A stretch of 64,000 nucleotides of DNA from Amphiscolops sp. MND2022 (taxonomy: Eukaryota), in assembly GCA_964187785.1 (NCBI GenBank), contig CAXLNC010001087.1, forward strand, positions 248,001-312,000. Reading direction: 5' to 3'. Position numbers and translations under genes: made by a program. The notes below the pieces were generated by a model. It did no database searches, was not told where the DNA came from, and saw nothing but the letters and a program-made list of their open reading frames with translations. Shown here piece by piece: positions 8,195-44,724 of this stretch; within the stretch, counting starts at the first letter, position 1, and each line of letters opens with the position of its first letter.

Positions 8195-8209
8195 GGAGTT
8201 GGTGCGCCA
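8195..8209 (-). promoter_or_regulatory. BEL primer-binding site
   Basis: TGGCGCACCAACTCC immediately follows the LTR end (...TTTTTCA). The cognate tRNA was not determined. Confidence 0.75.
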
Positions 8210-11353: not shown

Positions 11354-11426
11354 GTCTTCGTTTTGATCTCTTTGGTGTTACGGTATGGTACTTTTTAGAT
11401 TTGCATTGTTATTGTCGTAACTGGTG

Positions 11427-15695: not shown

Positions 15696-16930
15696 TCAGT
15701 TTTGAGAACTCGTGTTGACATTCAGCGGGTTGTAATACGCATAATCCTTTTTCCAGTTTGATGGGGGGTTTGCTCGCAAATTGTATTTGTTTTTTCGTGG
15801 AGAATTCTGGGTTGGGGTATCATTTACATAGTTGTCTGAACTGGCGCCAGGTAGTGTGTCGTTTGGGGGTTCATCTGGGTTAGGTGTTATGTGGAAATCT
15901 TCTGGGTCGGGTGATCGGGTGTTTCTTGTAATCGCTTGATCTTCGGGTGGGTCGGGAAACGTTACAGTGGGTTCCTTCTGTAAAGGGGTGTTAGGTGTTG
16001 GGGCAAAATCTTCGGAGTTTGACTGCCAGGCTTGGGCATATAGGTCGTCATGGAAGACGTCTACTTCCTTGTCCGGTATGAACTCTTTGGGCAAAACTGG
16101 TTTGTCTGGGAGCGGTTTGTCAGTTGGGCAAGGTTTCAAACGAATCCTATGAAGGATTTGTGTGAACTTTGTTTGGAGTTTTCGTATGAGGTAATTGTTG
16201 TTGGGTAGAGTTTTAACAACGATATATGGTCCTGTCCAGAGGTATTCTGTGAATGGGATTTTGGTGCCCTGGGTGTTCGCTTTCGGGTGAAGTGCGTAGC
16301 AGTATTCGTTGACATGTAGGGGGTGAGCATTGGCTTTCTTATCGTAATACTGTTTGTATCGTATATAAGATTGCATCAAGTTTTTGCTCACAGTTTCTTT
16401 GATCTGTTGGGTTTTGTGTAAGATATCTTCCCCATGGGTCGTCGTCGGTTTCGTTTGTTGCGCATTGCGGATGCCGAACTTAAGGTCCAACACGTTGTAC
16501 GGTATTCTCCCGTGGAATACCCTGCTTGGTTCGCATCCAAGTGAGGAGTGGTACGACGTGTTGTAGTTAAGTGTTGCAATGGCCACGTATTGGTGCCACA
16601 TTGTCCTTCGTTCTCCTGTTGATATCTTTAGCGATTCTTTTAGGGAGGCGTGGCATCTTTCCAGAATTCCGATGGTTTGGGCATGTTTTGTTGTGGCATG
16701 TCGTAGTTGTATGCCCAGGGTTCTAGTGGCGTCAGCCACTACTTCAGACATGAATTGAGTGCCTTTATCAGTGATAATTGTGGTTGGTAGGTAGGCGTGG
16801 CGGGTCATGATGTCTACTAGAACTCGGGCTACTGTGCTGGCGTCTGTTCTGACCACGTTGTATGTAAATAGGTAGCGAGAGAAAACGTCCATCGCCGTGA
16901 TGATTGCATGGTAGCCGCCGGATGGTTCGT
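15696..16930 (-). pseudogene. pol: Element A integrase, N-terminally deleted (lacks HHCC and the first catalytic Asp)
   Basis: Begins at DEPSGGYHAIITAMDVFSRYLF. Retains ITDKG, ILERCH and the GPY motif. About 0.6 kb is missing relative to element B. Confidence 0.9.
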
Positions 16931-19900: not shown

Positions 19901-20489
19901 TGGGTGCCGGAACTCTTATGGGTGACCTATTGGCGGTCGAGTTGGAGACAAGTTTTTTGATGATTGGTTTGAGGGGGTACTCGGGTGGTGACACAATGAC
20001 TTGTAACTCCGTTTCTCGTTCGTCGGCGTGGGGTACGGGTTGATGATCATTGTTGTCATCTATTCTCCTCTTGGTTGTGTCCAGATTCATGTTCGTCTTT
20101 TTGACGAATTCGTGGAAGGGGACGTTAATCGTCTCCTTGAATGTTAAGGTCGTTTGGTCGTATAAGTCGGGGTTGTGATAGGGGTCGCAACCGTAGTCTG
20201 GGTCATGGAAGTAGGTGTCAGGGGTAGAACTGGGAGGGAGGGGGCGTCTAGTTGAATTGTACATTTGGGGGTTTTCTAAGTACCATGCTGGGTATTGTAA
20301 TTTGTCGATGGTGGATTTATTGAACTTTATGAGGCGCCGGATAAGCCATCTCCGCTGCCAGTCGGTAGATGGTTCACCGGTACACTCTGCGAACATTTCA
20401 GAATCGTGGTTCTTCGGAGGTTCAGATATCGTGTAATATCTGTAATCGATGTAGTCTCCGAAGCGAAGACGTGGCTCTAGAAGTTTTTT
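16930..20489 (-). pseudogene. pol: Element A pol: pre-protease domain, protease, RT and RNase H, with a frameshifting ~68-nt deletion near 17385
   Basis: LIDSGA, YASPIF, LVDLRKIN, KLDCSQAY, YVDDIG, LMTDANF, VLTDNK. The segment VAFGSKTF...AKEFL present in B is absent. Confidence 0.93.
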
Positions 20490-21898
20490 GATTCATTCGT
20501 TGACTGCGTTACAGTCGGTGGTTGAGGCATTGGTGTAGTTTGTGGCTGCTGCATTGGGATGGTTTGTGGATGTTGGGCGATGGGGATGTTGTTGGGTGGC
20601 GTTGTTTTGGGCGTTTTCCACCACGTGGGACGGTTTTCCCAATTCGCACCTGAATAACAGTCCTTTGTCTCGTGGCTCATTTTGCCGCATGTCTCGCACG
20701 GTGAGGCCTGTGCTGCGGTATTGTTTCTTTGGGATCGTTTGTCCCTATTGGTTTTGCGGCAATTTCGTAGTAGGTGTCCCGGATGGCCGCACCCAAAGCA
20801 TGTTCCCGTTGTTTTTGGGGGTTTGTTCTGTTGTTGTTGTTGTAGGGAGGGTTCGATGTTGTGTATCCCGGTTATTGATGTGCTGTCAGTAGTGGCGAGT
20901 CCGTTGAGTTCGATTTCTCGTTCCAAGTGTTGGACCATTGTTTCGTATGATTCTGTCTCGAGTCTGGCCTGGTTTAGAACCTTCTTGAGATGGGGGGGCA
21001 TTTTGGCATAAAAGGAGGTTTCTATGAAACGAGGGGCGTCCTCCCCGTAAGCTTCTTGTGCTAACTTTTGATACTGCTCTAGGAAGTCTGGGAATGTTTG
21101 TTGGCTTGGGTTGAACGCCAGATTTTCCCATTTGCAGCGTGCTGTTGCTACTGACTGTTGTCTGACATACCGTCGGCGGAAGCCTGCGAGGATGTCGTTC
21201 AGGTGTTCTCGAGTTGCGTCGGTCATGTTCCTGAACGTTTGTAGTGCTTCGCCTCTCAGGAGAGAGTGGAAATAATGAATTTTCTCCTCTTCTGTGATAT
21301 TCGGGTACACTTTCAGACTTGTTTGAAATAGATCCTCAAAGTGTTCAAACTTGTCCGTTTTTCCATCAAATGTGGGCATCGTGGTGGACATGGCTTTGGG
21401 TAGCCTGGGTATTCCGGTGTTGTGCGTCGTTGCCGTTTGCAGCGAGTGTAAGAGTTTGTCAATGAAGTCATCAGGGTACCTCTGGTTTGGAGGCGGCAGG
21501 CTTGATGATCTTTGGTGGGCGCTTTCTTGCTGGTTCGCTGAAACTCCTGTCACCATGTTGGAACTCACGTTCCTATCAATGCTTTCGTTTCCTGTATTTC
21601 CTATCGGGTCCGTTTCCAATTCGAAATGTGCGGCAGAACTACATTGTTCTGAGACAGAATTGGACAGGTTGTCCACTTTTGATGCTAAGTTCTCGATCAA
21701 CCTCAGGATTTCTCTCTGTCCGAATTCAGTGTCTCTTAAACGCTTGGACAGACGATTCTCTATTTTATTGGAGATATCTTCGAAATCTTGTTCAGAGAGG
21801 CTAACATTTTCGTCATTTGAGGCATTACAATTCTCAATTTCCTCTTGGCTAGTCCCTTGGTCACTCCTTAGCTTTCTTTTCTGTGACTTTTCGGGCAT
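20477..21898 (-). CDS. gag: Element A gag (473 aa from ATG 21898; first 114 codons inside the 5' LTR)
   Basis: MPTFDGK..FEHFE capsid-like start. Two CX2CX4HX4C knuckles (CFGCGHPGHLLRNC, CETCGKMSHETKDC). Confidence 0.92.
   Translation of the reverse strand: MPEKSQKRKLRSDQGTSQEEIENCNASNDENVSLSEQDFEDISNKIENRLSKRLRDTEFGQREILRLIENLASKVDNLSNSVSEQCSSAAHFELETDPIGNTGNESIDRNVSSNMVTGVSANQQESAHQRSSSLPPPNQRYPDDFIDKLLHSLQTATTHNTGIPRLPKAMSTTMPTFDGKTDKFEHFEDLFQTSLKVYPNITEEEKIHYFHSLLRGEALQTFRNMTDATREHLNDILAGFRRRYVRQQSVATARCKWENLAFNPSQQTFPDFLEQYQKLAQEAYGEDAPRFIETSFYAKMPPHLKKVLNQARLETESYETMVQHLEREIELNGLATTDSTSITGIHNIEPSLQQQQQNKPPKTTGTCFGCGHPGHLLRNCRKTNRDKRSQRNNTAAQASPCETCGKMSHETKDCYSGANWENRPTWWKTPKTTPPNNIPIAQHPQTIPMQQPQTTPMPQPPTVTQSTNESKNF
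20483..20489 (-). promoter_or_regulatory. -1 ribosomal frameshift heptamer A AAA AAC (gag-pol)
   Basis: Lies two codons before the gag stop. The -1 frame is open from here into pol. The same heptamer is in B at 38462-38468. Confidence 0.8.
21543..21555 (-). promoter_or_regulatory. Element A PBS TGGTGACAGGAGT
   Basis: Directly follows the LTR-terminal CA. The identical 13-mer is in element B (39648-39660). Confidence 0.85.
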
Positions 21899-23452
21899 TT
21901 TCAAGGAAGTATTTCTGCTTGGAAAATTGAATTGGGTATTCACTTGATAACAGTTATAGGTAAACTATTCCCAAGCAACGCTGGTTAATCACAAAATAAT
22001 ATCCAAAAGTTCAAAATTACGGACGAATGGTTTCAACAAACGGATGAAGTCAACAATTATCAAAAGTAGATAATTACAAAACAATACTTGAAAAGACGAT
22101 CAAAGTAGTTCGTACAATCGTGAAATTGATTCTGTTCCTTTCCTTATCCCGCTTCAGGTATTTATACTTTACGCTAGACACGCGGAATAAATTCCGCGCG
22201 TGAATTCACACCTTGTTCAGCTCGGCGTCCTTCCGAGGCGGGAAACTTTGAATCAGGTCCACATCCTCGGGATTCGGCTCTCGGCGTCATCTCACTTTTA
22301 AGGAAAAGTGGGAATCAACTTCCTGCCGAAGTCCCAATTCCGCTTCGCTTTCTTCTCGGTTTCCCGCCAATTCAAGACGCCGAACCAAAGTTGGCACTGA
22401 AATTCATGAACCTAGCTACTAAAGCGGGAAAGGAAAGTGAAATTGTCATCGAATAATCCCAAATTTTACTGCCAATAAATTAAGGGAAAAGCTTCAAATG
22501 AATAAATCAACAGCACTGATTTACATTAAATCAGATAATTATGGCTGTCAAATGGCATTTTAAGTTGAACCAAACAATAAAAATCCTGGATGAACGCCAG
22601 GTAACATGTTTCATTTCGAGTAGCCTAGCCGGTTGACCAGGCGATTGACTCAATTATACATGAACAGAACAATACATGTGAAGGTGAATATTAGCACGGG
22701 GGGGTTATTTTATCACAATATTATTATATATTATAATCAACAAGGACGGCTTTGCAGTTTAGGTGATTGGAAGTTGCATTTCAATTAACTATTTTCAATC
22801 ATCTGTCCAGGCTGTTGTTTCATTAAGGAAAAATAGCGCCTTGCCTGGGAGATTGACTCAGATGGAAAGTGGATTAAACATATTATGATACTTCAAAATA
22901 TCGTTGATTGGCGTTTATTAGGTGTTCTTTTGGTACTTAGCTTCTTTTAAGCTGTGATAAACTCATTTGAAAACTGCATCGATTAATTATAATTTGAGTA
23001 CTCAGGTAGTGCGACTGAGCGAGCGTCCCAGCTTCAGTCGACTGGTAAGTTGCCTGGGACGTTGACTCAGTTATTCAATTAGTAACAACTGCGCTCGAAT
23101 CTGATTGGTCAATATGAATTGGCTTAATGAAATTTGCTACTTCAGCTGAGGCGAATCCCCAGTCAACGCGTTGATTGAATTAATTTCAGTCAGCGCACTG
23201 GCTAGGTTGACTAAACAAATACTGCATTCATTATTATTATTTAATTATTTACATATGTATGTATTTTAGCTACAGCACAGAGGAGGGGAATGTACGATTG
23301 TGTGTTATTCAAATAATATCAAGCTGTTTGTTGTCCTTTTTATTTTAGATCTGTTTATGGTAATTTTGGTCAGTTCTGATTGATTTCCTCACTCTCTTCT
23401 TCAGGCGTTCCTCCCGTTGTATGTGTCCCGTGACGCCTCTGGGGTCGCGACA
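21556..23452 (-). repeat. Element A 5' LTR (1897 bp)
   Basis: Direct repeat of 8647-10543. Candidate TATA box TATAAATA at 22159-22166. Confidence 0.97.
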
Positions 23453-26588: not shown

Positions 26589-28781
26589 TGTGTTGACCCT
26601 GAGATGGGTGCAACTCGTTCAACGTAGTTGGCCTTGATGTCGAGGCTTGATTTTCAGGTTCGTAGAGATCTACTATGGGATTTTCGGATCTAAGCGGATG
26701 GCCGGACAATGAGTCTATTTTTGAAGATAAATTCTCAATCATCTTCAGGATTTCCCTTTGCCCAGTCTCGGCGTCTTTTATTCTTCTACCAACTGATTTT
26801 TCGATTTTCTCAGAGATTTCGGAAAAATCGCGATCGGAGATACTGGGTACATTTTCAGTCCTTTGGCTAGCTGCCTCAGGTTCACCTAGCGAGCTGGATA
26901 CTGAATCCCTTCTGGCTTTCCTTTTAGCGGATCTTTCGGGCATTTTTGGGTTTTAAGTTCACAGATTCAAACTATTCGACAAAGAATAAAGAAAGGTTGA
27001 GATTTTTAATCTTCAATTGAGTTTTGTAACAAGAGAAAACAAAGTTGCTTTACAGGAAGCGGTTTTTGAATTTTCAAAATCTATCAAATTATTATTTTTC
27101 AACTGCACTTATTTAACTTTTTCAAGTATATATACCTTTCACCCACGTGAAGCGGGGAAAAATCCGCACCACTTTCACGCTTTATTCAGCCCGGCGTCCT
27201 TCCAAGGCGGAGAAACCGGAAGTTCAGTTCCGCTTTGTCGAACTCAGGCTCTCAGTTTGTTCATGCTTTCCGAGGAAAGCACGCGTCCACTTCCTGCCTG
27301 AGTTGCGACTCCGCTTTCCTTCACCTCCAATTCCCGCCTTTTCAGGACGCCAAAGCTGAAATCAGCAATAAAATGAGCGATGATTCAACATTTCGCTTTT
27401 AAAAAGCGGGAAAGATGAAATTAAAGCAACGACAATTATGGAAATTAGAAATTTCCCAAAACGATTTAACTGATTTAAATATTACTCCAGATAATAGTTA
27501 TTTCAACGAAACTGCACTTAGGCTCGTAAAACTACCCGTGGGGGCATGAAAACACTGATTAAGCATGAAGGGACAAAGCTCAGTCTCAGGTTGGGGTCTG
27601 AGACGATTAAGGCAAAATAACTGATTTCGCAAAAATAGCAAAAAAAATCGCAATTTAGCAACGACTAACAATTTTGTGATTTATATCAACTTGGGGGTGC
27701 GGTTCAGGTCATTTCTCAATCCAGTTTAAATGAGGATTAATTTTAAAAGGGTAGTACAAACCATTGATTAAATAACTCAAGTCAAAGATTTAATTCCCAG
27801 GCCGGGGTCTAGGCCGTGGTTTAATGCATTCAAAGTTAAGTATTGCTACATGAATAAATGGTCATAAACTGCATGTAATCAACCACTAATTCTTATTATA
27901 CTTCGTATTTGGGACGTGGTTTCACTGATAAGACGGTGGGTAATCGGGAGTACCGATATTTTTACTTTTAAGATGGATTTGGACACACCTGATTTCAGGC
28001 CGTGTCCTGGGCTACAGTTTATTGCATTTACTAATTAATCTTGGTTTACATGGGTGAATAGTATTGCACAACACTCTTGATCGTTATTCGATCGTTTTTC
28101 ATTGTAGGTGTTTGGTTATCGGGTAAAAATCATCAACCGAATTAACAATTTCCATTTCTACAATGGATTTTAAAAATTTACATTTCAGGCCACTTCCTGG
28201 GCCGCGGTACATTACTTTCAGTTAAAATCAACACAATTTGTACATTACTCAGGGAATTACATGTAAATCATCACATTAGTTGTCTTTGTTTGCATCAACA
28301 CTTTTACATGTAATCATTTAATAGCGCGTTCACTGCTGCATAGCGTTAAATAGCTCATTCCAATTTCAGGCCGCTTGCCAGGCCGCCGCTTCACTGCGCA
28401 AATCTGAGGCCGGTCGCCAGGCCACGGTTCCGCCATTGATCTTCCAAACCGTTTGCTGAGCGGTGTGATTCTATTAATAATATAGCACTGTATTATTATT
28501 ATTATTATTAACTGCACTAATAGCTCCGTACTTGTTGGTACACTGTGTGTGTACGTATATATTCTTGTATAAATATATGTAATTATTAGTATTTATATAT
28601 ATATATAAATATATTTTTAGCTCCAATTTGATTTAAAGTAATAATTTATAATAGCAATAAGTTAGTTGTGTGTTAGTTATTTCACTTGCCTTTTCTTCTG
28701 TTTCGGTCTAATTCCAATTTCCTTCTTCGAAGACTGCGCTTATTGTGTGACAGGTTTCATAGCTTAGCTGGGGCTGTGACA
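26589..28781 (-). repeat. Element B 3' LTR (2193 bp)
   Basis: Matches 39661-41774 with scattered substitutions and several indels. Confidence 0.95.
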
Positions 28782-29304
28782 GTCCTCGACTTCGATGTGC
28801 TGTCTCATCTGGAAGGCGGAATTGGGATATCGACCGGATTGGAGTGTCAAACAAATTGGGTAGATCATCGCGCATTGAGTCGTAGGATCTCCACGACGAA
28901 TCCGAGTCCCAGTCGCTTCCTGACCAGTACCCTTCTGAGCTGCTGTATGGGCTCATGGGACTGCTGACGGTAGAGTTAGGGCTGTATCGGTCCGCAGGAT
29001 TGAACCGCCGGATTGGGCTCACGAATTCGTCATCTGGGATAACCGGATTATCTGTAGTGAATCTTCGTATCACTCCTTGTTCGTTTTCAACGTTAATTGC
29101 ATTTAAAAGCGGTTGTTCGTGAACAAGGACTACATGTATATCTGCCGTCTTGATTATTTCGTAGGTAATAGTATGCTGTGCTGTGTTGATGAGATTGTAA
29201 TTAGGCGGCGGTGTACCGGGCCTTTGTCTTGGCTGCGCTGGTTGATCTCGGTCGAGCAGAAAAACGTCTTCATTTGTTTGATCGTTGGAGTGGGAATTGT
29301 ACAT
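28708..29304 (-). CDS. ORF-X homologue in element B (198 aa); last 74 nt lie in the 3' LTR
   Basis: Motif-level identity to 10461-11087. Open frame with ATG. Confidence 0.8.
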   Translation of the reverse strand: MYNSHSNDQTNEDVFLLDRDQPAQPRQRPGTPPPNYNLINTAQHTITYEIIKTADIHVVLVHEQPLLNAINVENEQGVIRRFTTDNPVIPDDEFVSPIRRFNPADRYSPNSTVSSPMSPYSSSEGYWSGSDWDSDSSWRSYDSMRDDLPNLFDTPIRSISQFRLPDETAHRSRGLSQPQLSYETCHTISAVFEEGNWN

Positions 29305-29531
29305 TTTATTTGATTGGCAATCTGATTGTCAGTTGATTAGGAACATAACTGACTAATCCGCGTCCTGAAAATTTGTTCAAACCGTTTGTGTTGAGCTTTT
29401 GAATTGTTCAGCTGCCAGACTGAACAACTCTCCTTATATAGTAGATAACTTCTAGTATTAATATTTCCATTGATTTTACGCCACAACTTCTTTTTATTTT
29501 TTCATGGTTTGTTATTTTCAGACAATTGATT

Positions 29532-32500
29532 ATGTGTTCTACTGAAGAAGCTAGTGCATTGTTGCACCGCAGTCGAGAAGCAGAGTTAGTTGAGAGTGGA
29601 GCAGAAGTTGAGTCTGTGGTTGAGTCGTTGTCCGTGGAGAGGAAAAAACTAGTGGATGTGGGGGTGATGATGAAAATGAAGAGGCGAGTGGAGGCGGCGT
29701 TCAGGAGGAAGCTGGTGTGTCTGTTGAGCATGCAGAAAAACATGTGCCAGGCTTTGGTGACAGAGCAAATTCCAGTGATGACAGTAGTGGAGAGCATGAG
29801 AGTGTTATTGCAACTGGGTCTTTCCATTCTGCCACAAGTGATGATCGGCATGACATTGATTACTTGGCACGGAAGAAAGGTAATCTTTTCTAGAAATTAA
29901 TAGGTGGCCAGCCTTTTCTAGGTTTTTTGAACGCGTTCTATTCATCTACTTTCTGTAGCTACCGATGATGTATCTGATGAGGATTATGCCCCGATCCGTA
30001 GTACGAGGTCCCAAGGGAAGAAGAAGAGAAGGGCCAGTCGAATGTTGTCAACTACCAGTGTGCAGTCTGCGAAACGGGTTCGGTTGGCGGATGTCATTTC
30101 TGATTCGATTACCAGGCCGCCCTCTTTTCTAGACAGTTCGGGAGATGACCATGTGCCCGCCATGATTTCTGCTTCTCGGACTCTTGAAAGTAGGTATTCT
30201 TTCTCTTTCTCTTTCTAGGGGTGTCAAGTACAATGAAATGGGTTCGTGTATTGCTTGTAGGGACACTTGTTCTGCATTTCCTGTTGTTCATACTTTGGTT
30301 GTATTATAGTTGCTGGAGCAATGCCTGGGCCAGGAATTGAGTCTTCCGAGGACAGTGATGTATTTGTGTGTGAGGTGGCGGGTGATACTCCTGCCCCTGT
30401 CAGTGATGCTGTCTCGGAGCTACCCGGTGTGTCGTCCAAGCGTGGCAGGACTCAGCACGGACGAGTCGCTGTTGGGGTGGAGGCCTCAGTTGTGTATAAT
30501 GACTGGGAAAATGGTACGTTGAATTTTCATTTCCATTCCTCTTTTTATGCCCTCTTCGTGTTGTGTACTTTTGCTCATGGTGCGGTTTAGCGTCAAATAT
30601 AGTGTTGTGAAACTTGCTTGTTTGTTGTCAGCTGGTCTGGATGCAGTTCCTCCTGGTTCACCAATGATGATGTCCGCGGCGCAGTGTGTGTTACTGGCCC
30701 GAAGTGCTGCCCGAGCAGAGCGGACTGAGTCTCTTAAAGAAACTAAAAGCCTGGCTAAGCGTAAGTGTATTGTTGTTGTTCTGTTGTTTGGCTTTCTTGA
30801 CTTCTTCGGTGGTTTCTTTTAGGTTGTTTTGGTTGCTTCTATCTCTTGGATGTTTGTATGAAGTGTTGTTGTATGCTGTCATTTGTTTGACTACTTGTTG
30901 TTATGTTTAGAATTTGAGGAGTTGTCTCGGCTCCTGAAAGGGAAAGGCATTGACGCTGAGATGCGGTGTCTAGCACGTGTTCTGTCCCTTGTGTCGACCA
31001 TTCGTGGACCTGCTTCAATTTTGAACTGCCCACCTGTTCTATTTAATGGGTATATCGACTGGTGTCACACCGTTGGTCGTCCTGTGCCTGTTGTTGCTAT
31101 GGATTTCGATCCCGATATGTTGCGGCGTCTAATCAATGAGTCCAGTATTGTGTGTGTGGGGTCTGTGGATCCGTTCTCAGCTCTGAAGTATTTGGTTCAG
31201 CGTCTCAAGCGGGTGCGTCATCAGGCGTGGTTATTAAATCTGCCTCAATTGCGTCTATGTTTGGAAACCGGAGTCGTGCCCTTTGCGTCTTTGTGTGGGA
31301 TTCTGCAGGAACTTCTGGATAATTGGGCTGACGTGAAGCTGTGCTTATCGAACAATGTGCTTATTGATGAAGAAGTCAGCGAATGTTGTGGATCTAGATT
31401 CTCTTCTGTGTGTTGATCGTCTGGTCTTGCCGCGCTTTGCCTTTTTGCACGTTGTGTTGCTGTGCTACAATTCAAACTTCAGGAGGCAGCAGGATCCGAA
31501 GGTTCGGGATTACGCGTGTCGCAATTTTACTGACTTTTGCTTTTTTTACTGGAGTCTTTTGGGCAAGGTGAAGAAAGTTAGTCAGTTGCCGTCCGTGGAT
31601 AATTGGTTTGAGTACATTGATCAGCCTCTGACCAATTGGGCGAATGTTACCGCTGGGGAGTGTTTGCAGTCCGAGCCCAGCATCATGACAGCGTTGCGCG
31701 GTTTTGATGACGCTCCTCGCCGCACCTTCCTGCGTGAATTTCAGGGGTCCTTGCTTGAGTTGTTGAAACGGCTTGGATCTTCAGCTTATTGTAATTCCCG
31801 TGTGGCCCGTTCGATCAACTGTTTGAGTGTAGATATGCTGCTGTAAGGAGATGCTGAGTATGTGGTAGATTTGTTTCAAGATCTGGTGAGCTGTTTACAT
31901 GGTGCTAGCTTTCTGAGTGGAGTTGACCGGGAGGCCTCTGTAAATGATTTCAAGTCTCTGGTTGTAGACCTGCGTCAACGGTCTTCTGATCCTGAACAAA
32001 TTTGTGATGTATTCGGATTTTTGGAAGCTAGTGATGTTTATCAGTGCCGGGGCTACGTCAAACAAGTGGTTCGTCTGTTGCGAGTGATGGTGTGTTCTGG
32101 GCCAAATGCCATGCCTCCGGTGGATATTTCAAGTAGTGGAGTTGGTCTTCCTGCAGCTGTTATCCGTTCAGGGATCAGTGCAGTGCAGTCGTTTGTTCTC
32201 CATCCCAAGTTTGTCTCGAATGGTTTACTGACCGTGGAGTGTTTGGAGGAGTAAAAGGTGAATTTGCCTGTGGGGCATCAGTTCTTGGCGCGCACCTCTT
32301 TTGATCCGTTCGTGGATATCAGTCGTCATGATTGGACAGATGTTTTTGAGAGTTTGTTTCGCTGTTACACCGCCTACTACACTGGTCAGGTTGAGGGATG
32401 GAGAGCCCGGATGGCTAGTGGGCGATCATCCCGTGGTGTGCCGTCTGGTACTACGTCTGCTGCTGAGACTGTTTCTGTGGTTGAGGCGTCCGAACCAGTG

Positions 32501-32578
32501 CAGGCCTCTACGAGTTCGTCGGTGCAAAAGAAGAGAGCGGTGTCGAAGAAAGGATCTCGCCAAGAGAAGTCTTGTTGA
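29532..32578 (+). pseudogene. Disrupted homologue of the antisense spliced gene (exons 29532-29879, 29959-30189, 30310-30513, 30632-30760, 30911-32578)
   Basis: Four phase-1 GT-AG introns and conserved exon-edge peptides. Frameshifts in exon 1 and near 31410. TAA stops at 31844 and 32252, both opposite Leu in A. In-frame loss of ~0.8 kb including the zinc finger. Confidence 0.85.
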
Positions 32579-32914
32579 GTTTTTTGAAACTTTACGTTGA
32601 TGAACTGCTTTTATTTATTTTCTTTGTTGTTTCTTTCTATTGTTCTGATGTTACAGGGTTCCGCTAGTCGGTTCCGTCTGAGAAAATAAAATAGATAGAA
32701 AATCAGGTTAAGAATGCTCTGGTATTATGGAGCGAAGAAAAAATTTGAGGCAGCTCGGTGGTCCACTGGGTTATTCAATTTAGTATTTAGCCTCTGTATT
32801 GTTTTCATCCGAGTCGTACAGTAAAAGTGTAAGAGAGAGAAAGAGCCATTATAAGTTGAGGAGATTTGGATATGAGTTGCAGTATAGCTGTCCAGGTTAG
32901 CGCCTGGGGCCTTT

Positions 32915-35900
32915 TCAGTTTTCTGATCTCAGGCCATCGTCAGGGCCGAGGTCCGCTACAATCTGTTTTTCTGGGCTGTTGTCCAGGCCTTGTATCTGAT
33001 TTAGGGAATTTTCAGAGTTTACCTCTAAGGCGTTGCAATATGCGAAATCTGGTTTCCAATTTGAAACTGGGTTTCGTCGGAGATTGTAATGGGATTTTCG
33101 GGGGGATTTAGGAACGGGTGTATGATCTTCGGGTGCATCTTCGGTATCCAGAACTGGGTCATCTGTCTGGCTTCCTGGGTGGTTATTATTGCTTTCAGGC
33201 CCGTGCATTGGGTCGGGGTTCAAAGGGCTGGGGTACGTAAGGGCATCGTTTGTTTCCGGTGCCTGGGGTATTACTTCGGGTTCGGGCGACTGGCTATTTA
33301 CGGGGTGGGTAGGGGGTTCTTGATAAAGTTCTTGCCAAGCCATTGCGAAGAGGTCATCATGCTGTATGATTACCTCCGTGTCCTGCTGGAAATCTTTAGG
33401 CGAAACTGAGATGTCAGGCAGTTTGTGGCTGCTTGCGAATGGCCTTAGTCTGATTCTGTGCAGGATCTGGGTGAGGTTCGTTTGGAGTTTTCGGATTAAA
33501 TAATTACTATTAGGTAGGGCTTTGACAACGATATATGGTCCCGTCCAAAGGTATTCCCGAAACGGCAGTTTTGTCGCTTGGCTATGCGCCTTTGGATGCA
33601 ATGCATAGCAGTAGTGGTTTGCTACCAGTGGGTTTGCTGATGCCTTTCTGTCATAATAACGTTTATGACGTACGTAGGCCTGCATCAGTGCTTGCTGACT
33701 TTGGTTGAGGATTTGTCGTGTTTGCTGCAACACTTCCTCAGCTATTTCGTGATTGATTGGGGTAGGGGGCTGTGGTTTGAGTCCGTATTTCAAGTCGAGT
33801 ACGTTGTAGGGCACTCTTCCGTGAAACACCCTGCTGAGTTCGCAGCCTAGGGATGTGTGATATGGGGTATTGTAGTTCAATACTGCCATCGGTAGGAATT
33901 GGTGCCACATAGTGCGTCGTTCTCCTGTCATAATTTTGAGACTTTCTTTCAGGGAGGCGTGAGTCCTCTCTAGAATGCCGATCGTCTGGGCATGTTTTGT
34001 GGTGGCGTGTTTCAATTGGATTCCCAATGCTGCTGTGGTTTGATGCATTGCTTCTGATATAAATTGGGATCCCTTGTCGGTTATTATTGTTGTGGGAAAG
34101 TAGCAATGCCTGGTTATGATGTCTGTGAGGACTCGTGTGACTGTCTTGGTATCGATTCTGGTGACACTGTATGCGAATAGATATCTGGAGAACACGTCCA
34201 TTGCAGTAATGACCGCGGTGTAGCCTCCTGATGGTTCATCAAAAGGGACTATGTCCATCTGGAGTGCATCTTCGGGTCCCATTGCTACTTTTGACATGTC
34301 GATCAGCGGTGGTGTGATGGTGCTGTTGGGTGTTCTCTTTGTCTGGGCACATTCCATACAGTGCGCTATATGGTGAGCTATTGGGGCGGCAAGTCCTGGG
34401 AAGTAGTACTTCTCGCGGCATTGTTGGATAGTTTTGGCTATTCCCGGGTGTTTTCCATATTTGCCATAGTGGTGTTGTATGAATTCATCGACAAGTTGTT
34501 GGGGGAGCAGCACTTGTAAATATTTGATATTTGACTTTTCCAGTGTCCCCAAAGTATTGCCTTGATAGGAGTCCATCTTTGATAATGATCCTATCTTCTT
34601 GGGCTAGGTACTTCGTTGCTCTGGGATCGTCATTGAGGAGTTGGGTGTCGTACGGTTCCTTCAATATTTTGAGCTTGAGGTTTCTGAGGATGGGGTCCTG
34701 GTCCTGGTGTGGTCTTAGGCTGCGAGGAAAATTGGTTTCGTTGTGTAGCTGACGCCTTTGTTCCTGTTCCGGGTCTTGGATGTTGTTGCAAACCAGGGGC
34801 AGATTCTCTGTTTGTGAGCTTGGTTCGGTGGTATCGATTTGAGGATCAGTTGGTTGTTCTTGGGGGTTATAGATTTTCTTTCGGGCACGTTGTTTGCGTT
34901 CCCAGATGTCTTCTTCAGTTTCAGAATCGTCTTCTGGCAAAAAGTAGAATTGATCCTCCTCATGTATGTCTGAGGATTGGATGTTAACTTGGATGGGCGT
35001 GGTCTGGATATCTTCCCTGATTTGGAGAAGGACTTTTTCTTTTGGATTGATGTCCAATCGGGAGAGGAAGTCTGCCACCGTGTTCATCCTTCCTGGCACA
35101 TGGGCAATTTTGAAGTGAAATTGAAGCACAAAATCACAGGCGTTCCACAGGGAGGGTGGGATCAATTTGGTTTGAAAAAACCTTGTGACTGATTTATTGT
35201 CTGTTAGGACGATGGTTGGTTTGGAGGAACCCCACAAGATGTGGCTATATTCCATGAAGGCGAAATAAATGCCTAAAAACTCCTTGGCATAAATTGACAT
35301 TTTCAATTGTGACGGGGAGAAAGTTTTAGAGCCAAATGCCACGGGGGTGTATGTTTTCTTTGTGGAGGTGAGTTTTTTTTCTGGGTTTTCTTCAGTCATC
35401 AAGGCATATCCAGCGTTCTTGAAGTTCGCATCAGTCATTAGGACATACTGCCGGTTTGGCAGCGGCTGTTTGAGCCAGAGGTCACATGCGTTGTCTAACG
35501 ACTTGTTGATGGCTTCAAAGTTGGTTATGAGTTCTTGATCTATTTTGGCAGGTTTGTCGGATTTGATGAGTTCGTGGAAAGAGGCTTTCTTCTCGGATAA
35601 TTGGGGAATGTAGTTTCTGTAATAGTTCACGAATCCGATGTATCGTTGAAGTCCTTTCTTCGCTCGAGGGAACTTGAGTGTTTGTAAGTATTTCTGGATC
35701 TTGTGGCTCTGGGGTGCCACTCCTGATGGGGAGATCGTTCGCCCAATGAATTCGACTTCCTTGGCGCCGAACTGACATTTCGCCATTGTGAGCTGGAGTC
35801 CTGCGGCACGGATGCATTGGAAAACCTCTCTCAAATTGTTTTTCAACTCTTCGGGAGTGTTTGTGTCGATTCCAATGTCGTCCACGTATTGGGCGCATTT

Positions 35901-38468
35901 GTCCGCCTTTATGGTTTTGTCCAGGTATTCCCTCATGAAACTTGAGAAGGACGATAGTGAGCGGCTCAGTCCTTGGGCCAGCCTCAGGTACGCGAACGTT
36001 CTGCTGGCAAAGTTGAAGGCTAGGAGCTGGACGAACTTCTGGTCTGCCATCTGCAGTACGTGGTAGGCTTGTGAGCAATCAAGCTTGCAAAACAACTTCT
36101 TGCGGGCGAGGTGTTGTGCAGCGTCGGTTAGTGTGCTGACCGGATGGTTATTGTTAATATAGTCGTCGGAGATCAAATTATTGATCTTTCGGAGGTCCAC
36201 TAGGAGGCGCAGTCGTCCATTCGGTTTGCGCTGGGCGAAGATCGGGCTGGCGTACTTGCTGAACGGGAGGGTTGTTATGATCCCGAAGTAATGCATGAAT
36301 GCTAGATCCACTGTCAAGTCCTCTTTCAAGTTAAAAGGGCAGGGCAGGCTTTGCAAGTAGACTGGGTCGTCCGTTTTCGGCGTGAGTTTGATTTTGAAGT
36401 CGTGGTTAATTCCGATGTCCAATCGGTGCCTCGCAAAAATGTCATTGAACTCTATCAGTATTTCTTGGACGTCTTTCTGGTCATTTTCTGTTAGCTGGGA
36501 ATCATCCCATTTGAAGTTTTTGAGGAATGCTTCTCGGTCTTCTGCGTTGTTGTTGGGGTCCAGCTTCTGGATCTCCTCCAGTTCTTTGATTTCCCTCAGT
36601 GTCCTGCTCTGAATTGGCGTGTGGGTATTTGGGTCTCCAGGGTTATCTGGTGTGGGGAACCAAAAGTTTTGACTGTGAGAAGGTTGGTCAGAAGTTTTCA
36701 GGAGTTCGTTGATGTATATTATGGCGTCTTCTGAGTGGTCCTCCGTGAGTACTTTTAGTGCTGCTGTGTTGAGTGGTTCGAGTACTTTGGCTTCTTCGCG
36801 TGACGTGATTTTGAACTCAGCAACAGTTGTATTCTTTTTTATGGTGTAAGGCGTGGGGGTAGTATTGGTTACCCTGACGTCAATTTTCCGGTTGGAGGCC
36901 GTGGATATCGAGCTGGCTACGACCAAAGGGTCACCGCTGCAATGGTTGGTGGCGGGGTTGATGACACCGGTTGTGTCGATGGTAGATGTTATGTCCGCGT
37001 AGGCGGTGATTGTTTGGGTTGTTTCAGGAGGAATGGTTAGTGGACTCTTGACCTGTACTTTGTATAGCTTTCTGTTGCGGGTAAATTCATCGGTTTCAAT
37101 CGAGTACGTTAGATGGGGGAAGTGGAGTAGGCCTTGGCTTACATCCAGAATGGCACTATTGTTTTTCAGGAATGTGAGGCCGAGTATTGGGCCTGTGAGT
37201 CGTTTTGCGACGATGAACGTTTCTTTGAAATTCCAGTCCCCGATTTCGAATTGGAGGATTATGGTCTTGGTGGGGGTTTCAATGTCGCCGTTTGCGAATT
37301 GGAGTTTGAACGGGGGTGGTTCCAGTTCTTTGACTATGTCCTTGGGGGACATCTGGAGGATTTTGTTGTAATCGGTTTCGGAGATGCAGTTGACCAGTGC
37401 TCCGGAGTCGATGAGGGCGTCCAGGGTCAAGTCCTGGAAGTCCATTGGGGCGAATAGCTTCTTCTTTTTCTTCTTAAGGGTCACCGCTGAGAAGATTGGA
37501 ATGCATTCTTCTTTGGTGATGGGGTCTCTTGTGAGGTATTCTGCAATCTGAGCCATGGGGTAGGACTGGGGTTCGTCCTGTGTCGGTGTGTCGTTTACAG
37601 CACCTGAGGGGGATTCAGATTGCATGTTGGTTTCGGCAGCCGTAATGGGTCGAGGGTCCTCGACTTCATTTGCGGGCTGACTTCTTGGGGAGGAGGGTGA
37701 GGGCGACGCCTCGTTGTAGGAGAGGGGTTCTAGGAGTAGAGACCTTTTTATTCTCCTTGTTTGCGGTGTGGAGATTGGGTCAGGTCCACAGCTTCAGTCG
37801 TGGTCCTGTCGGTGAGGTTTTGGGTTTGGTGACAGTCTGGTGCCACGTCCATTGTTGGGGATCGTACGATTCCGGCTCTGATGGGGTTGGCTGTTTGGTG
37901 TTTTGGTGGTGATTGTGGAGCCGTGGTTTGGGATCCGTGGTTTTTAAGTATGGACTTTGGCCTGGTAGTCGATTCGTCGACTAGTATTTCCGTCACTCGT
38001 TCTGTGTCTTGGTCGTACTCTGGGACCGGTTGGATGGTTTTCGGTCTGTGGCGTGGTTCTGTGGATATATTCATCTCGGTTGTCTTGATAAATTCCTCAA
38101 TTGGCGTGCACTCTCGTTGTTTAAAGGTTAAAGTCGTTTTGTTGTAGATTTTGGGGTTGTGATAGGGATCGCAGTTGAAGTCGGGATTATGTATATAGGT
38201 TTCAGGGGTAGTAGTTTCGGGTAGTGGTCGTTTTGGAGTGTCGTAGTCGTTCGGGTTGTTACCATTGTGGGTAGTCTTTTTTGGTCGTATTTTGACGGTT
38301 GTACTTATGGAGCCTGTGGATTTGCCATCTTCGCTGCCAGTCGAGAGATGGTTGTTCACAGCGCACGGTGATTTCTTCATGGTCGTAAGAGTTTGGGGGT
38401 TCCGATGTTGTGAAGTGTCGTGTGTCGACCTCCTTCCCAAACTGAAGATGTGGCGAATTTAGTTTTTT
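32915..38468 (-). pseudogene. pol: Element B pol (pre-PR domain, PR, RT, RH, INT), broken by frameshifts near 38260, 37740 and 34525
   Basis: LIDSGA, YVDDIG, LMTDANF, AKEFL, VLTDNK, H-x6-H...C-x2-C, QMDIV, ITDKG, ILERTH, GPY. Confidence 0.95.
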
Positions 38469-40015
38469 GACTGATTTGGTTCCTGGGGTTGGTTTTGGGG
38501 TTGGGTTGTCGTTTGCGCAGGCGGCATGTAGCCCATTTGGCTAGTTGCTTGATTGTGGTACTGGGTTTGGGTTTGGGTTGTCATTGGGAGAAAGGGGGAG
38601 GTAGCCCATTTGGCTGGTTGTTTGGTTCTGGTACGGCGGTTGGGTCGTTTGGAAATTGTTTTTGGCATACTGACCTTGTGATTGCGGAGGTATCGGGATG
38701 TTATTTGGGGACGTGGCTTTGGGGGTTTTCCACCACTGTGGTCGATTTGCCCAGTTGGCGCCTGAGTAGCATTCTTGGGTGGTGTGGCTTTTTTGCCACA
38801 AGTTTCGCATGGGTCAACAATTTTGTTGGGCACCCTGTTACCTCTATTGCGGGCTTCGCGGGCTACTTTCCGGCAGTTTTTGATAACATGGCCAGATTGT
38901 CCACATCCGTAGCATGGTCCTGACGTTTTGGGAGGATTCGTAGCTTGCTGTGGTTCTAGTGCGTCGATTTGATGCACTCTTGTTATGTTGGTCTCGCTGG
39001 GGGCCAACAGCCCGTTTAACTCCATCTCTCTCTCTAAGTGTTGGACCATCATTTCGTAAGATTCAGTTTCTAACCTTGCTTGGTTCAGGACTCGTTTGAG
39101 GTGGGTTGGCATTTTCGCGTAGAAGGAGGTCTCGATAAACTTGGGGGCGTCGTCACCGTATGCTTCTTGAGCCAGCTTTTGATACTGCTCCAAGATGTCT
39201 TGGAAGGTTTGTTGGGATGGGTCAAAATGGAGTTGTTCCCTTTTGCAGCGGGCTGTCGCGATAGATTGGGGGCGGACATATCGTCGTCGGAAGGTCGCGA
39301 TGATGTCGTCTAGGCTGGCACGGTTTGTGTCAGTCATGTTGCGGTAAATCTGCAGAGCGTCATCCCTGAGTAGTGAGTGGAAATAGTGGATCTGCTCCTC
39401 TTCTGAGATGTTGGGATACACTTTGAGGCTGGTCATGAAGAGGTCTTCAAAGTGCTCAAACTTGTCGTTCTTTCCGTTGAATGTGGGCATGGTTGTTGAC
39501 AATGCCTTGGGCAATCTGGGGAGTCCTATGTTTTGTTGGGTGACATTCATGAGTGATTCTAGCAGCTTGTCCACTATGTGATCCGGGTATTTCTGGTTGG
39601 GGGGCGGTAGGCTCGAAGATCGGGGCGGTGCTTCTTTTTGGGGGAACACTCCTGTCACCATGTGTTGACCCTGAGATGGGTGCAACTCGTTCAACGTAGT
39701 TGGCCTTGATGTCGAGGCTTGATTTTCAGGTTCGTAGAGATCTACTATGGGATTTTCGGATCTAAGCGGATGGCCGGACAATGAGTCTATTTTTGAAGAT
39801 AAATTCTCAATAATCTTCAGGATTTCCCTTTGCCCAGTCTCGGCGTCTTTTATTCTTCTACCAACAGATTTTTCGATTTTCTCAGAGATTTCAGAAAAGT
39901 CGCGATCGGAGATACTGGGTACATTTTCAGTCCTTTGGCTAGCTGCCTCAGGTTCACCTGGCGAGTTGGATACTGAATGCCTTCTGGCTTTCCTTTTAGA
40001 GGATCTTTCGGGCAT
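38459..40015 (-). CDS. gag: Element B gag (first 118 codons inside the 5' LTR; a frameshift in the second zinc knuckle is likely)
   Basis: Homologous to A gag. CYGCGQSGHVIKNC. The second knuckle CETCGK continues as KSHTTQEC in another frame (ORF 38541-38810). Confidence 0.88.
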   Translation of the reverse strand: MPERSSKRKARRHSVSNSPGEPEAASQRTENVPSISDRDFSEISEKIEKSVGRRIKDAETGQREILKIIENLSSKIDSLSGHPLRSENPIVDLYEPENQASTSRPTTLNELHPSQGQHMVTGVFPQKEAPPRSSSLPPPNQKYPDHIVDKLLESLMNVTQQNIGLPRLPKALSTTMPTFNGKNDKFEHFEDLFMTSLKVYPNISEEEQIHYFHSLLRDDALQIYRNMTDTNRASLDDIIATFRRRYVRPQSIATARCKREQLHFDPSQQTFQDILEQYQKLAQEAYGDDAPKFIETSFYAKMPTHLKRVLNQARLETESYEMMVQHLEREMELNGLLAPSETNITRVHQIDALEPQQATNPPKTSGPCYGCGQSGHVIKNCRKVAREARNRGNRVPNKIVDPCETCGKKATPPKNATQAPTGQIDHSGGKPPKPRPQITSRYLRNHKVSMPKTISKRPNRRTRTKQPAKWATSPFLPMTTQTQTQYHNQATSQMGYMPPAQTTTQPQNQPQEPNQSKN

Positions 40016-41437
40016 TTTTGGGTTTTAAGTTCACAGATTCAAACTATTCGACAAAGAATAAAGAAAGGTTTTTAATCTTCAATTGGGTTTTGTAACAAGA
40101 GAAAACAAAGTTGCTTTACAGGAAGCGATTATTGAATTTTCAAAATCTATCAAATTATTATTTTTCAACTGCACCTATTTAACTTTTTCAAGTATATATA
40201 CCTTTCACCCACGTGAAGCGGGGAAAAATCCGCACCACTCTCACGCTTTATTCAGCCCGGCGTCCTTCCAAGGCGGAGAAACCGGAAGTTCAGTTCCGAT
40301 TTGTCGAACTCAGGCTCTCAGTTTGTTCATGCTTTCCAAGGAAAGCACGCGTCCACTTCCTGCCTGAGTTGCGACTCCGCTTTCCTTCACCTCCAATTCC
40401 CGCCTTTTCAGGACGCCGAAGCTGAAATCAGCAATAAAATGAGCGATGATTCAACATTTCGCTTTTAAAAAGCGGGAAAGATGAAATCAAAGCAACGACA
40501 ATTATGGAAATTAGAAATTTCCCAAAACGATTTAACTGATTTAAATATTACTCCAGATATTAGTTATTTCAACGAAACTGCACTTAGACTCGTAAAACTA
40601 CCCGTGGGGGCATGAAAACACTGTGTAAGCATGAAGGGACAAAGCTCAGTCTCAGGTTGGGGTCTGAGACGATTAAGGCAAAATAACTGATTTCGCAAAA
40701 ATAGCAACGACTAACAATTTTGTGATTTAAATCAACTTGGGGGTGCGGTTCAGGTCATTTCTCAATCCAGTTTAAATGAGGATTAATTTTAAAAGGGTAG
40801 TACAAACCATTGATTAAATAACTCAAGTCAAAGATTTAATTTTCAGGCCGGGGTCTAGGCCGTGGTTTAATGCATTCAAAGTTAAGTATTGCTACATGAA
40901 TAAATGGTCATAAACTGCATGTAATCAACCACTAATTCTTATTATACTGCGTATTTGGGACGTGGTTTCACTGATGAGACGGTGGGTAATCGGGAGTACC
41001 GATATTTTCACTTTTAAGATGGATTTGGACACACCTGATTTCAGGCCGTGTCCTGGGCTACAGTTTATTGCATTTACTAATTAATCTTGGTTTACATGGG
41101 TGAATAGTATTGCACAACACTCTTGATCGTTATTCGATCGTTTTTCATTGTAGGTGTTTGGTTATCGGGTAAAAATCATCAACTGAAATAACAATTTCCA
41201 TTTCTACAATGGATTTTATAAATTTACATTTCAGGCCACTTCCTGGGCCGCGGTACATTACTTTCAGTTAAAATCAACACAATTTGTACATTACTCAGGG
41301 AATTACATGTAAATCATCACATTAGTTGTCTTTGTTTGCATCAACACTTTTACATGTGCAAAATCTGAGGCCGGTTCCGCCATTGATCTTTCAAACCGTT
41401 TGCTGAGCGGTGTCATTCTATTAATAATATAGCATTC

Positions 41438-41505
<68 letters not shown>

Positions 41506-41774
41506 GCACTGATAGCTCCGTACTTGTTGGTACACTGTGTGTGTACGTATATATTCTTGTATAAATATATGTAATTATTAGTATTTATACATATATAAAT
41601 ATAGTTTTAGCTCCATTTTGATTTAAAGTAATAATTTATAATAGCAATAAGTTAGTTGTGTGTTAGTTATTTCACTTGCCTTTTCTTCTGTTTCGGTCTA
41701 ATTCCAATTTCCTTCTTCGAAGACTGCGCTTATTGTGTGACGACAGGTTTCACAGCTTAGCTGGGGCTGTGACA
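39661..41774 (-). repeat. Element B 5' LTR (2114 bp), with an expanded (ATT)n tract at ~41438-41501
   Basis: Direct repeat of 26589-28781. PBS adjacent at 39648-39660. Confidence 0.95.
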
Positions 41775-44715: not shown

Positions 44716-44724
44716 CCAAAATGT

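Follow-up and report, generated by a model that had tools for sequence, protein, structure and literature searches.

Antisense open reading frames lying between pol and the 3' LTR have been described in plant and fungal Ty3/Gypsy elements (Grande gene23, RIRE2, Retand TRP28/PF04195, PvRetro13 and Boty), and the available text of these reports has them present in most copies and thought to be nuclear regulators, with Grande possessing an antisense promoter of its own (PMC7264820; PMC11963269). As far as that text goes, their origin and function are called unknown, and an origin from nested transposable elements is unsupported by similarity to such elements (PMC7264820; PMC11963269). Introns go unmentioned in the accessible part of PMC11963269. 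For plant DNA transposons, the portions available describe Spm TnpA as having evolved from a transposase and transposases as activating cognate copies (10.64898/2026.08.24.746577), and place the target motifs of VANC in non-coding parts, introns included, where dense tandem motifs are needed (PMC5735166). The main text of the TnpA preprint does not mention LTR elements or retrotransposons (10.64898/2026.08.24.746577). Animal LTR elements with captured cargo include those carrying bdelloid ORF3, whose description mentions neither an intron nor a transposase (PMC5408684), and planarian Burro, with its cargo, in the text available, in the sense polyprotein or an upstream accessory ORF (PMC6431247). 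We found no hAT-derived accessory gene of an LTR element in the literature; repeat-library entries, subscription papers and supplements may hold such an annotation.

The window analyzed here, a stretch of 64,000 nucleotides from Amphiscolops sp. MND2022 (contig CAXLNC010001087.1), contains two Ty3/Gypsy LTR retrotransposons, elements A and B, recognized by their LTR pairs, TG..CA ends, primer-binding site, polypurine tract and flanking 5-bp target duplications. Pfam domains on the window ORFs follow the gag-PR-RT-RH-INT order of Gypsy. In both elements an accessory gene lies on the plus strand, antisense to the minus-strand gag-pol, between pol/integrase and the 3' LTR (Table 1). The LTRs of B had been reported as largely unalignable to those of A, and only 7% of bases match between the two 3' LTRs. 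A conserved antisense ORF between pol and the 3' LTR is what defines an aORF-3R, and such was found here, in loci sampled from the gene outward. The accessory gene is like the plant and fungal antisense ORFs in place and orientation, but differs from them in its animal host, four conserved introns, hAT fold, cassette exchange and the absence of PF04195 (Retand TRP28) from all 35 members searched at E<=1. Like bdelloid ORF3 and Burro it is captured cargo of an animal LTR element, and like Spm TnpA and VANDAL VANC it is an accessory gene of a mobile element. The latter two, however, belong to plant DNA transposons, counter DNA methylation and have tandem motif arrays, whereas the elements studied here show neither motif arrays nor CpG depletion and carry a candidate target dyad only once or twice each, the true target being possibly a different one.

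Table 1. Features of elements A and B and their accessory genes in the window
Feature	Position	Strand	Basis or remark
Element A 3' LTR	8647..10543	-	99.9% identical to 21556-23452 (self-BLAST)
A accessory gene, open for 1174 aa	11427..15400	+	Exons 11427-11808, 11901-12095, 12193-12381, 12483-12608, 12768-15400; intron 2 acceptor uncertain
A intron 1, with hairpin and palindrome TGACGCGTCA (11864-11873)	11809..11900	+	Alignment, folding
A exon 5 open frame, 880 codons	12758..15400	+	C2H2 BED-like finger, RNase H-like core, helical insertion, C-terminal region; Hermes-like fold
Element A gag-pol, split into several ORFs	15696..21555	-	Pfam
Element A 5' LTR	21556..23452	-	Self-BLAST
Element B 3' LTR	26589..28781	-	Self-BLAST; TG..CA ends, PPT, 5-bp target duplication
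Leader, two motifs common to clades A and B; candidate antisense promoter	29407..29484	+	Alignments of 12 clade-B and 8 clade-A leaders; function inferred
Conserved splice-acceptor-like site 10 nt upstream of ATG; putative 5'UTR intron end or trans-splice acceptor	29510..29521	+	Sequence pattern
B exon 1, acidic, Ser-rich; frameshift near 29627 in window copy	29532..29879	+	Translation, splice sites, sister comparison
B intron 1, with conserved hairpin (29890-29921) and palindrome GAACGCGTTC (29929-29938)	29880..29958	+	Alignment, folding
B exon 2	29959..30189	+	Splice sites, multi-element comparison
B intron 2	30190..30309	+	Identical donor context in 13/13 clade-B elements
B exon 3	30310..30513	+	Splice sites, multi-element comparison
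B intron 3	30514..30631	+	Splice sites, multi-element comparison
B exon 4, 129 nt in clade B vs 126 nt in clade A	30632..30760	+	Multi-element comparison
B intron 4	30761..30910	+	Splice sites, multi-element comparison
B exon 5, probable hAT-transposase-derived body	30911..32578	+	Translation, sister comparison
Element B gag-PR-RT-RH-INT, split into several ORFs	32915..39660	-	Pfam DUF1759/Retrotrans_gag, asp protease, RVT_1, RT_RNaseH, Integrase_H2C2, rve
Element B 5' LTR, then primer-binding site	39661..41774	-	Self-BLAST

All four introns that the original prediction placed in the B gene are present with GT..AG ends, and each peptide it quoted was found in the translations of A and B. The phase 1 it gave these introns holds for sister copies but not for the window's own copy, where the chain from the ATG at 29532 is in phase 0 and stops in exon 2 because one base has been lost near 29627, giving an exon 1 of 348 nt. 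Exon 1 was measurable in 6 of 12 sister loci tested; it was 349 nt (phase 1) in five of the six, and four of those five were stop-free. In exon 5 the window copy is frameshifted by one additional base near 31361 and interrupted by stops at 31844 and 32252, and 798 nt of the sister copies, covering the finger and the following helical region, are gone at 30951-30959. With two frameshifts, a 798-nt gap and two stops, the window's B copy is broken. This breakage was earlier overlooked, as were the probable hAT-transposase origin of the gene, the exchange of the cassette between backbones and the conservation of intron 1.

Introns 1, 3 and 4, proposed to occupy homologous positions in A and B, were recovered in phase 1 in all 22 elements with an aligner free to pick any phase, and chance splice sites are ruled out by the occurrence of the same introns in 22 elements. 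Intron 2 had been regarded as not obviously homologous. It probably is, being invariant in 13 of 13 clade-B elements, and in clades A and B alike exon 3 measures 63-76 codons; the query used affected where the intron begins and ends in clade A. Spliced models are open for 1094-1179 aa in 16 of 17 elements, a count that omits five copies whose models were poorest or whose breaks were already known. Between A and the nearest sister of B, protein similarity over exons 1-4 is above that of shuffles (z = 8.7, 4.0, 10.1 and 7.9). At the DNA level the same pair is no more alike than noise, in introns (identity 0.53) as in exons (0.50). Mostly synonymous change had been expected from a codon alignment; this pair, with its saturated dS, cannot show it, and intermediate pairs do. 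For the closest unsaturated subfamily pairs dN/dS was 0.17-0.24 in exons 1-4 and 0.06-0.09 in exon 5. Intron interiors had been described as diverged, which does not apply to intron 1: in within-subgroup pairs its identity is 0.81-0.94, above that of exon 1 at only 0.59-0.85.

Of the loci fetched, 20 of 20 sit between LTR pairs, with gag and pol on the opposite strand in 19 of 20; the loci were sampled from the accessory gene outward and not from RT. The deep A/B split is shared by the RT tree and the accessory tree, the latter a quick tree without bootstrap, for 20 of 21 elements. With introns in 22 of 22 elements, dN/dS of 0.06-0.24 in measurable pairs and LTR linkage throughout, the earlier reading of this spliced antisense gene as an ancestral part of the lineage, maintained by selection over the long term, is borne out, and the accessory gene is almost certainly a real, selected gene. 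The family is abundant: a first look gave 12,029 candidates, 52 of which were scored. A distant clade with more introns, the P0107 cluster, has 28 members. None of the 93 pattern matches in a scan of viral_contigs was confirmed, and a metagenome scan confirmed one of 100 (L101, 1356 nt, too short for context).

The last exon of the accessory protein gave a predicted model with pLDDT 92.2 and pTM 0.78; a single-sequence fold (pLDDT 38.5) was set aside. Using Foldseek against the PDB, all ten matches at E<=0.001 were to Hermes (best E 3.9e-5). A structural match to Hermes had Z 12.2 and rmsd 5.6 with 403 aligned, the sole chain of 48,161 with Z>=8, and TM-scores to it were only 0.3-0.4 on the query. 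The one BFVD match at E<=0.001 is a hAT-domain protein, and atlas neighbours at 0.91-0.93, which count together as one further source of hAT evidence, bear Dimer_Tnp_hAT, DUF4371 and FAM200-ZBED5_RNase-like. Sequence searches were less informative: Pfam gave neither a hAT domain (PF05699, PF14291) nor any other informative family for the accessory protein on window ORFs, 35 alignment members and 42 distant pieces, a PDB sequence-profile search had no significant match, and a cluster look-up returned no names for 10 of 10 proteins. A Hermes-like RNase H core with a helical insertion domain is present in the model, together with an N-terminal C2H2 finger whose C40, C43, H60 and H66 are retained in 39-41 of 42-44 rows. 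We take this finger, which has no match in Pfam, to be of the BED type. The finger and the adjoining downstream segment are the best-conserved parts among alleles, at 83-90% vs 26-60% in the N-terminus, where 63 of the first 260 residues of the A protein are D or E.

Neither a conserved DDE triad nor the CxxH motif of an active hAT transposase was found in the alignment. D/E occupancy stayed below 80% in every column where strands 1 and 4 end and throughout the segment expected to hold the third residue, positions that we set from predicted strands and the hAT motif rather than by residue-level superposition. Column 636 is D/E in 49 of 64 rows and may represent the third residue in a shifted place. 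The gene resembles Hermes and other hAT transposases, as well as domesticated ZBED/FAM200/ZMYM1/GTF2IRD2-type proteins, in its finger, RNase H-like core, helical insertion and overall fold. Unlike Hermes and the hAT transposases, it has just 10-14% identity to Hermes, lacks a Pfam match, conserved triad and terminal inverted repeats (no pair common to A and B surrounds the gene), and bears a 260-aa acidic extension. Unlike ZBED-type proteins, it would have been domesticated by a retrotransposon and not by the host, and it is still mobile as cargo. Judged from the models and alignment, the accessory gene is very likely hAT-derived and its protein quite probably catalytically dead.

Among pairs with RT at least 94% identical, 20 of 22 had cassettes just 62-77% identical. 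Cassette silent sites are saturated although the backbones differ by 1-6%, and the reciprocal pattern was also seen, which rules out faster mutation as the source of the divergence. Cassette limits are sharp, and the panel, picked for cassette diversity, comprises 18 cassette groups vs 8 RT groups. LTR clade equals cassette clade for every one of the 20 elements in the LTR matrix, among them the recombinant P23_C13 with its RT in the other clade, an agreement that can reflect simple adjacency. A pol-less copy, B_C13, retains a complete cassette. The accessory gene is thus a swappable cassette exchanged between element backbones, and the leader moves with the backbone, not the cassette.

Within intron 1, the ACGCGT palindrome is invariant in 22 of 22 elements, and the pair flanking it is altered on both sides between clades; the same motif occurs in only 12 of 22 3'-LTR regions. 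The intron 1 hairpin has compensatory A-U/G-C changes in both clades, a covariation of one or two pairs per clade among related sequences. Single-sequence folding energies of the intron are not beyond those of shuffles (z from -1.4 to 1.5). The hairpin is closed by an invariant U-G pair that forms on the plus (pre-mRNA) strand, where consensus energies are lower in both clades. Gene conversion was ruled out as the cause of intron 1 conservation, as intron-1 variants track cassette subfamilies. An Rfam search of 26000-34000 had no matches at E<=1. In 20 of 22 elements a T-run and YAG precede the ATG by 9-29 nt. CpG observed/expected ratios are 0.77-1.01, with CpG transitions just 1.6-fold raised and transversions raised likewise; these indirect measures leave a VANC-like role in DNA demethylation unsupported.

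We propose that a hAT transposase gene with introns was acquired by an ancestor of this Gypsy clade, which placed it antisense to its own genes, downstream of integrase and ahead of the 3' LTR, and retained it as an accessory gene. The introns would outlast reverse transcription because the packaged genomic RNA carries their antisense strand, and by established splicing logic a separate plus-strand transcript from the conserved leader would be spliced. Going by the secondary-structure register, the DDE site would have decayed. The outcome would be a nuclear protein of ~1100-1180 aa that combines a transposase scaffold with a BED-like zinc finger of high conservation and an N-terminus that is acidic and rich in Ser. 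This protein may bind DNA sites in elements of its own clade, candidates being the leader motifs and the ACGCGT dyad found in intron 1 as well as in many LTRs, and may turn on element transcription or shield the element from silencing, as TnpA does for Spm. Co-packaged elements could recombine in similar flanks within one particle, and deeply diverged cassette alleles would therefore move between near-identical backbones, rare alleles probably being at an advantage in a conflict with small-RNA or protein defences of the host.

The dead transposase might instead bind host DNA or chromatin and tether the integrase complex, its alleles opening different genomic niches. A DNA-binding hAT architecture, the maintenance of many old alleles and a location adjoining integrase in all pol-bearing elements are consistent with such integration targeting, which we nevertheless hold to be unlikely: cassettes pair freely with different integrase types, once across clades, and the target duplications of 18 listed elements show no evident common motif by eye. 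The finger, moreover, is near-invariant among the alleles of a clade, which therefore probably read the same DNA. Less probable again is an RNA-level helper acting on genomic RNA in the manner of Rev and, reportedly, CERV, with the intron 1 hairpin and palindrome as an export, dimerisation or packaging signal on minus-strand RNA. The fold belongs to a DNA-binding family, and the closing pair and lower consensus energies favour the plus strand, not the minus; the shuffle comparison and the one or two covarying pairs per clade also weigh against this reading, which would account for the compensatory changes, the self-complementary motif invariant in every element with its two-sided flanking change, and the complete cassette of B_C13.

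Under a further alternative the protein would act as a repressor or exclusion factor, holding its own family in check or suppressing competing families, and competition between elements would keep the alleles diverse. Such self/non-self control is similarly improbable. Sharp cassette limits and the surplus of cassette over RT groups, in a panel chosen for cassette diversity, would suit it, as would autoregulation through a dyad in the gene's own intron; the candidate sites are, however, clade-specific rather than allele-specific, and an acidic N-terminus would better suit an activator. The idea that the gene is a passenger, whether as neutral cargo or as a hAT transposon that is active or of recent insertion, is largely refuted. 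A hAT DNA transposon would have short terminal inverted repeats and an 8-bp duplication around the gene. An entire transposase-length fold is kept, but the triad is not conserved, A and B share no inverted repeat pair, the only duplications are of 5 bp and lie outside the LTRs, the position is the same in 20 of 20 loci, and purifying selection has been strong over saturated distances. A nuclear, DNA-binding transcriptional activator or anti-silencer is the most likely mechanism on this analysis, with a probability of roughly 45%. The full scenario is more tentative and on balance doubtful: a class I clade would have domesticated a hAT transposase of class II, expressed from a spliced antisense gene, to serve as trans-activator or counter-defence factor, and would run it as an allele cassette. 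Many ancient versions with saturated silent sites would pass between backbones that are nearly identical, subject to frequency-dependent selection in the face of host silencing, with a cis dyad in the first intron and possibly trans-splicing as control.

The family supplies a probable resolved origin, a hAT transposase, for an antisense extra ORF, and does so in an animal. Here a transposase would have been domesticated not by its host but by a different mobile element, and the cassette pattern may be a readable record of element-host or element-element conflict. The function can be tested directly, given the many natural alleles, the candidate binding sites and a model of high confidence. If the full scenario is true, the accessory gene would be a transposon-borne counterpart, in an animal, of hypervariable viral anti-defence loci.

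Elements A and B lie in the window G000:C1100:248001-312000 of a 1.07 Gb animal genome. Each has a primer-binding site, a purine tract, a 5-bp target duplication, gag-PR-RT-RH-INT on the minus strand, and an accessory gene on the plus strand between the integrase and the 3' LTR. Element A is inserted at the end of the LTR of a BEL/Pao-type element, within which no accessory gene was seen. A 723-aa frame elsewhere in the window presumably resembles the protein-primed polymerase B of Polinton-like elements.

Window positions of elements A and B, their accessory-gene features and surrounding sequences
Feature	Position	Detail	Basis
Element A LTRs	8647-10543; 21556-23452	99.9% identical	Self-comparison
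Element B LTRs	26589-28781; 39661-41774	96.8% identical over main block	Self-comparison
B introns 1-4	29880-29958; 30190-30309; 30514-30631; 30761-30910	GT..AG ends in all four	
A intron 1	11809-11900		
Leader, A	~11270-11400		
Leader, B	29407-29521		
3'-LTR ACGCGT, A	~10257	12-bp perfect palindrome	
3'-LTR ACGCGT, B	~27281		
BEL/Pao-type LTR element	2000-8646	DUF1759, RVT_1, rve, DUF5641; LTRs 99% identical	
Third, smaller Gypsy element	57485-63322	230-bp LTRs (97%); gag, RNase H, integrase broken	
723-aa frame, minus strand	49547-52866	Weak Endonuclease_7 match; also a 260-aa frame matching no family	
Tandem array	43910-46176	Units ~104-108 bp	
Tandem array	24325-25480		

The accessory gene was compared across a panel of 20 loci plus A and B (n=22), with one to three per subfamily taken among the top matches and picked for accessory-gene diversity. 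With a spliced aligner for which no phase was prescribed, introns 1, 3 and 4 came out in phase 1 in all 22 elements; in some copies the aligner also called additional introns that were spurious. The exon-edge peptides quoted in the original prediction are all present. With a clade-B query, all 13 clade-B elements agree in the donor context of intron 2, whose ends in clade A moved depending on the query. The claim of four phase-1 introns in B holds for their ends and, in sister copies, for phase, but the window copy is itself broken: one base is missing near 29627, one is extra near 31361, stops occur at 31844 and 32252, 798 nt that its sisters have are lacking at 30951-30959, and the chain from its own ATG runs in phase 0 to a stop inside exon 2. 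Exon 1 was measurable in 6 of 12 sister loci tested, with a phase-1 length in five. Five damaged or poorly modelled copies were set aside; of the 17 models translated from the rest, 16 are open (1094-1179 aa).

Long-term selection on this antisense spliced gene, as had been proposed, is supported by dN/dS of 0.06-0.24 in three unsaturated pairs: 0.17 for exons 1-4 and 0.06 for exon 5 in A against Ap_C4, 0.24 and 0.09 in the nearest sister of B against Bp_C1, and 0.20 and 0.07 in P4 against P5. In the two closest pairs, where changes are few, exons 1-4 gave 0.36-0.64. Mostly synonymous change is seen in the three pairs of intermediate distance, but between A and the B sister dS is saturated (protein identity 36% in exons 1-4 and 46% in exon 5), and introns and exons are alike at noise in DNA identity (0.53 and 0.50). 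At intermediate distance introns 2-4 are less conserved than their exons, as expected from diverged intron interiors, but intron 1 exceeds exon 1 (0.81-0.94 against 0.59-0.85).

All 22 elements keep TGGC and the palindrome ACGCGT unchanged in intron 1. For each clade a hairpin is predicted, its loop closed by U-G and one or two of its pairs compensatory; its covariation score was reached by 8-10 of 500 shuffles, and related sequences can reach such a score without structure. Single-sequence folding energies of intron 1 were not better than those of shuffles, and Rfam was blank. ACGCGT also occurs in 12 of 22 3'-LTR regions, with a common context in eight clade-B elements, and there was no CpG depletion. 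Two motifs of the leader, which precedes the ATG, recur in both clades, and 20 of 22 elements carry an acceptor-like site that lies 9-29 nt upstream of the start codon, for which no donor common to both clades was found. The host we take to be an acoel. Use of this site in trans-splicing is a possibility; in one acoel, 30.2% of genes are reported to be trans-spliced (PMC9911081).

An LTR pair encloses the gene in 20 of 20 fetched loci, with gag and pol on the opposite strand in 19, so close homologues do not lie mostly outside LTR elements. In the RT tree and a quick accessory-gene tree alike, 20 of 21 elements fall on the same side of the deep A/B split. One recombinant (G000:C13:52469641-52487640; LTRs 96.8% identical) joins clade-B LTRs and cassette to a clade-A-like gag-pol. 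Another locus (G000:C13:36186253-36204252), apparently a tandem arrangement, has gag and an open accessory gene with no pol or integrase within 18 kb, and is a non-autonomous form retaining the cassette. Among distant relatives (P0068, P0119, P0101, P0107, whose cluster has 28 members, and kin; 20-36% identity), homology is broken near profile positions 205 and 430, and L101:704-776 shows a further GT..AG break, indicating relatives with more introns inside the region that is exon 5 here. The full-length homologues P0011, P0012 and P0014 are mutually 62-68% alike and the best match of P0012 in this genome is 49-50%, so that the family is probably present in at least one other genome.

Pfam and PDB profile searches with the accessory protein were blank. 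In a protein atlas it adjoins hAT-family clusters, and exon-5 frame residues 41-780 (99-row alignment) gave a structure model with pLDDT 92.2. All 10 PDB structure matches at E≤0.001 were Hermes transposase, with query TM 0.3-0.4 and a best E of 3.9e-5; a wide search gave Hermes Z 12.2 (rmsd 5.6, 403 aligned) and the next row 6.2, and the sole match at E≤0.001 in a viral structure library was a hAT-domain protein. C2H2 finger ligands are conserved in 39-41 of 42-44 rows. By ancestry the gene belongs to the hAT superfamily; the part encoded by exons 1-3 is acidic, rich in Ser and variable. With the catalytic positions placed by predicted strands and the hAT motif, D/E reached 80% in no column where strands 1 and 4 end, at the CxxH position that follows or in the third-acid segment, and 49 of 64 rows have D/E in one nearby column; loss of catalysis is for these reasons put only as likely. 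No inverted-repeat pair common to A and B was found flanking the gene. It is not classed as an active hAT transposon.

Sliding comparisons of P23_C8/Q_C3, Bp_C1/Q_C2a and P5/P7 showed LTR, gag and pol mostly 94-99% identical but accessory genes 52-79% identical, with the reverse in P23_C13/P23_C8 and Q_C2a/Q_C1a. Where RT identity reached 94% or more (22 pairs), exon 5 was in 20 cases just 62-77% identical. In 8 pairs the exchanged unit begins 9-71 nt upstream of the ATG, and in 7 pairs for which a model exists it ends 113-285 nt past the stop. Because the panel was picked for cassette diversity, copies found from one cassette provided a second check. Across 17 loci with the B cassette, one integrase-side type occurs in eight and another in two, five match no probe above 85% and two have no match; six Ap-cassette loci divide four and two by type, and 21 of 22 A-cassette loci share a single backbone. 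Old versions of the cassette are thus reshuffled, introns included, between young backbones, which template switching in similar flanks could accomplish.

Introns would persist because the packaged RNA would be their antisense strand. The protein would be a dead transposase serving as a DNA-binding factor, most likely (probability roughly 0.45) activating or shielding elements of its own clade. Integration tethering is a distinctly less probable role; RNA export or packaging, and equally repression or exclusion, are somewhat more doubtful still, and a mere passenger transposon is very improbable. The gene was classed neither as a TRP28 protein nor as a proven anti-silencing factor.

Plant and fungal Gypsy elements are known to carry antisense ORFs at the same position, the origin and function of which are described as unknown (PMC7264820; PMC11963269), and the accessory gene is a member of that class by position. 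The animal bdelloid ORF3 (PMC5408684) and Burro (PMC6431247) differ from it. TnpA is a transposase-derived regulator within Spm (10.64898/2026.08.24.746577), VANC binds motifs in non-coding parts, introns included (PMC5735166), and one domain of ATLANTYS shows homology to ASY2 (PMC13547354). In the open-access articles searched, no LTR element was found to carry a hAT-derived gene. The original prediction was borne out in part as observation, and its interpretation is supported and extended: the gene is old, under selection, of spliced type and of hAT fold; it holds a fixed position within a Gypsy clade and moves between elements as a cassette. The many retained versions suggest frequency-dependent selection, and a class II transposase may, tentatively, have been domesticated by a class I element and run as an allelic counter-defence cassette.
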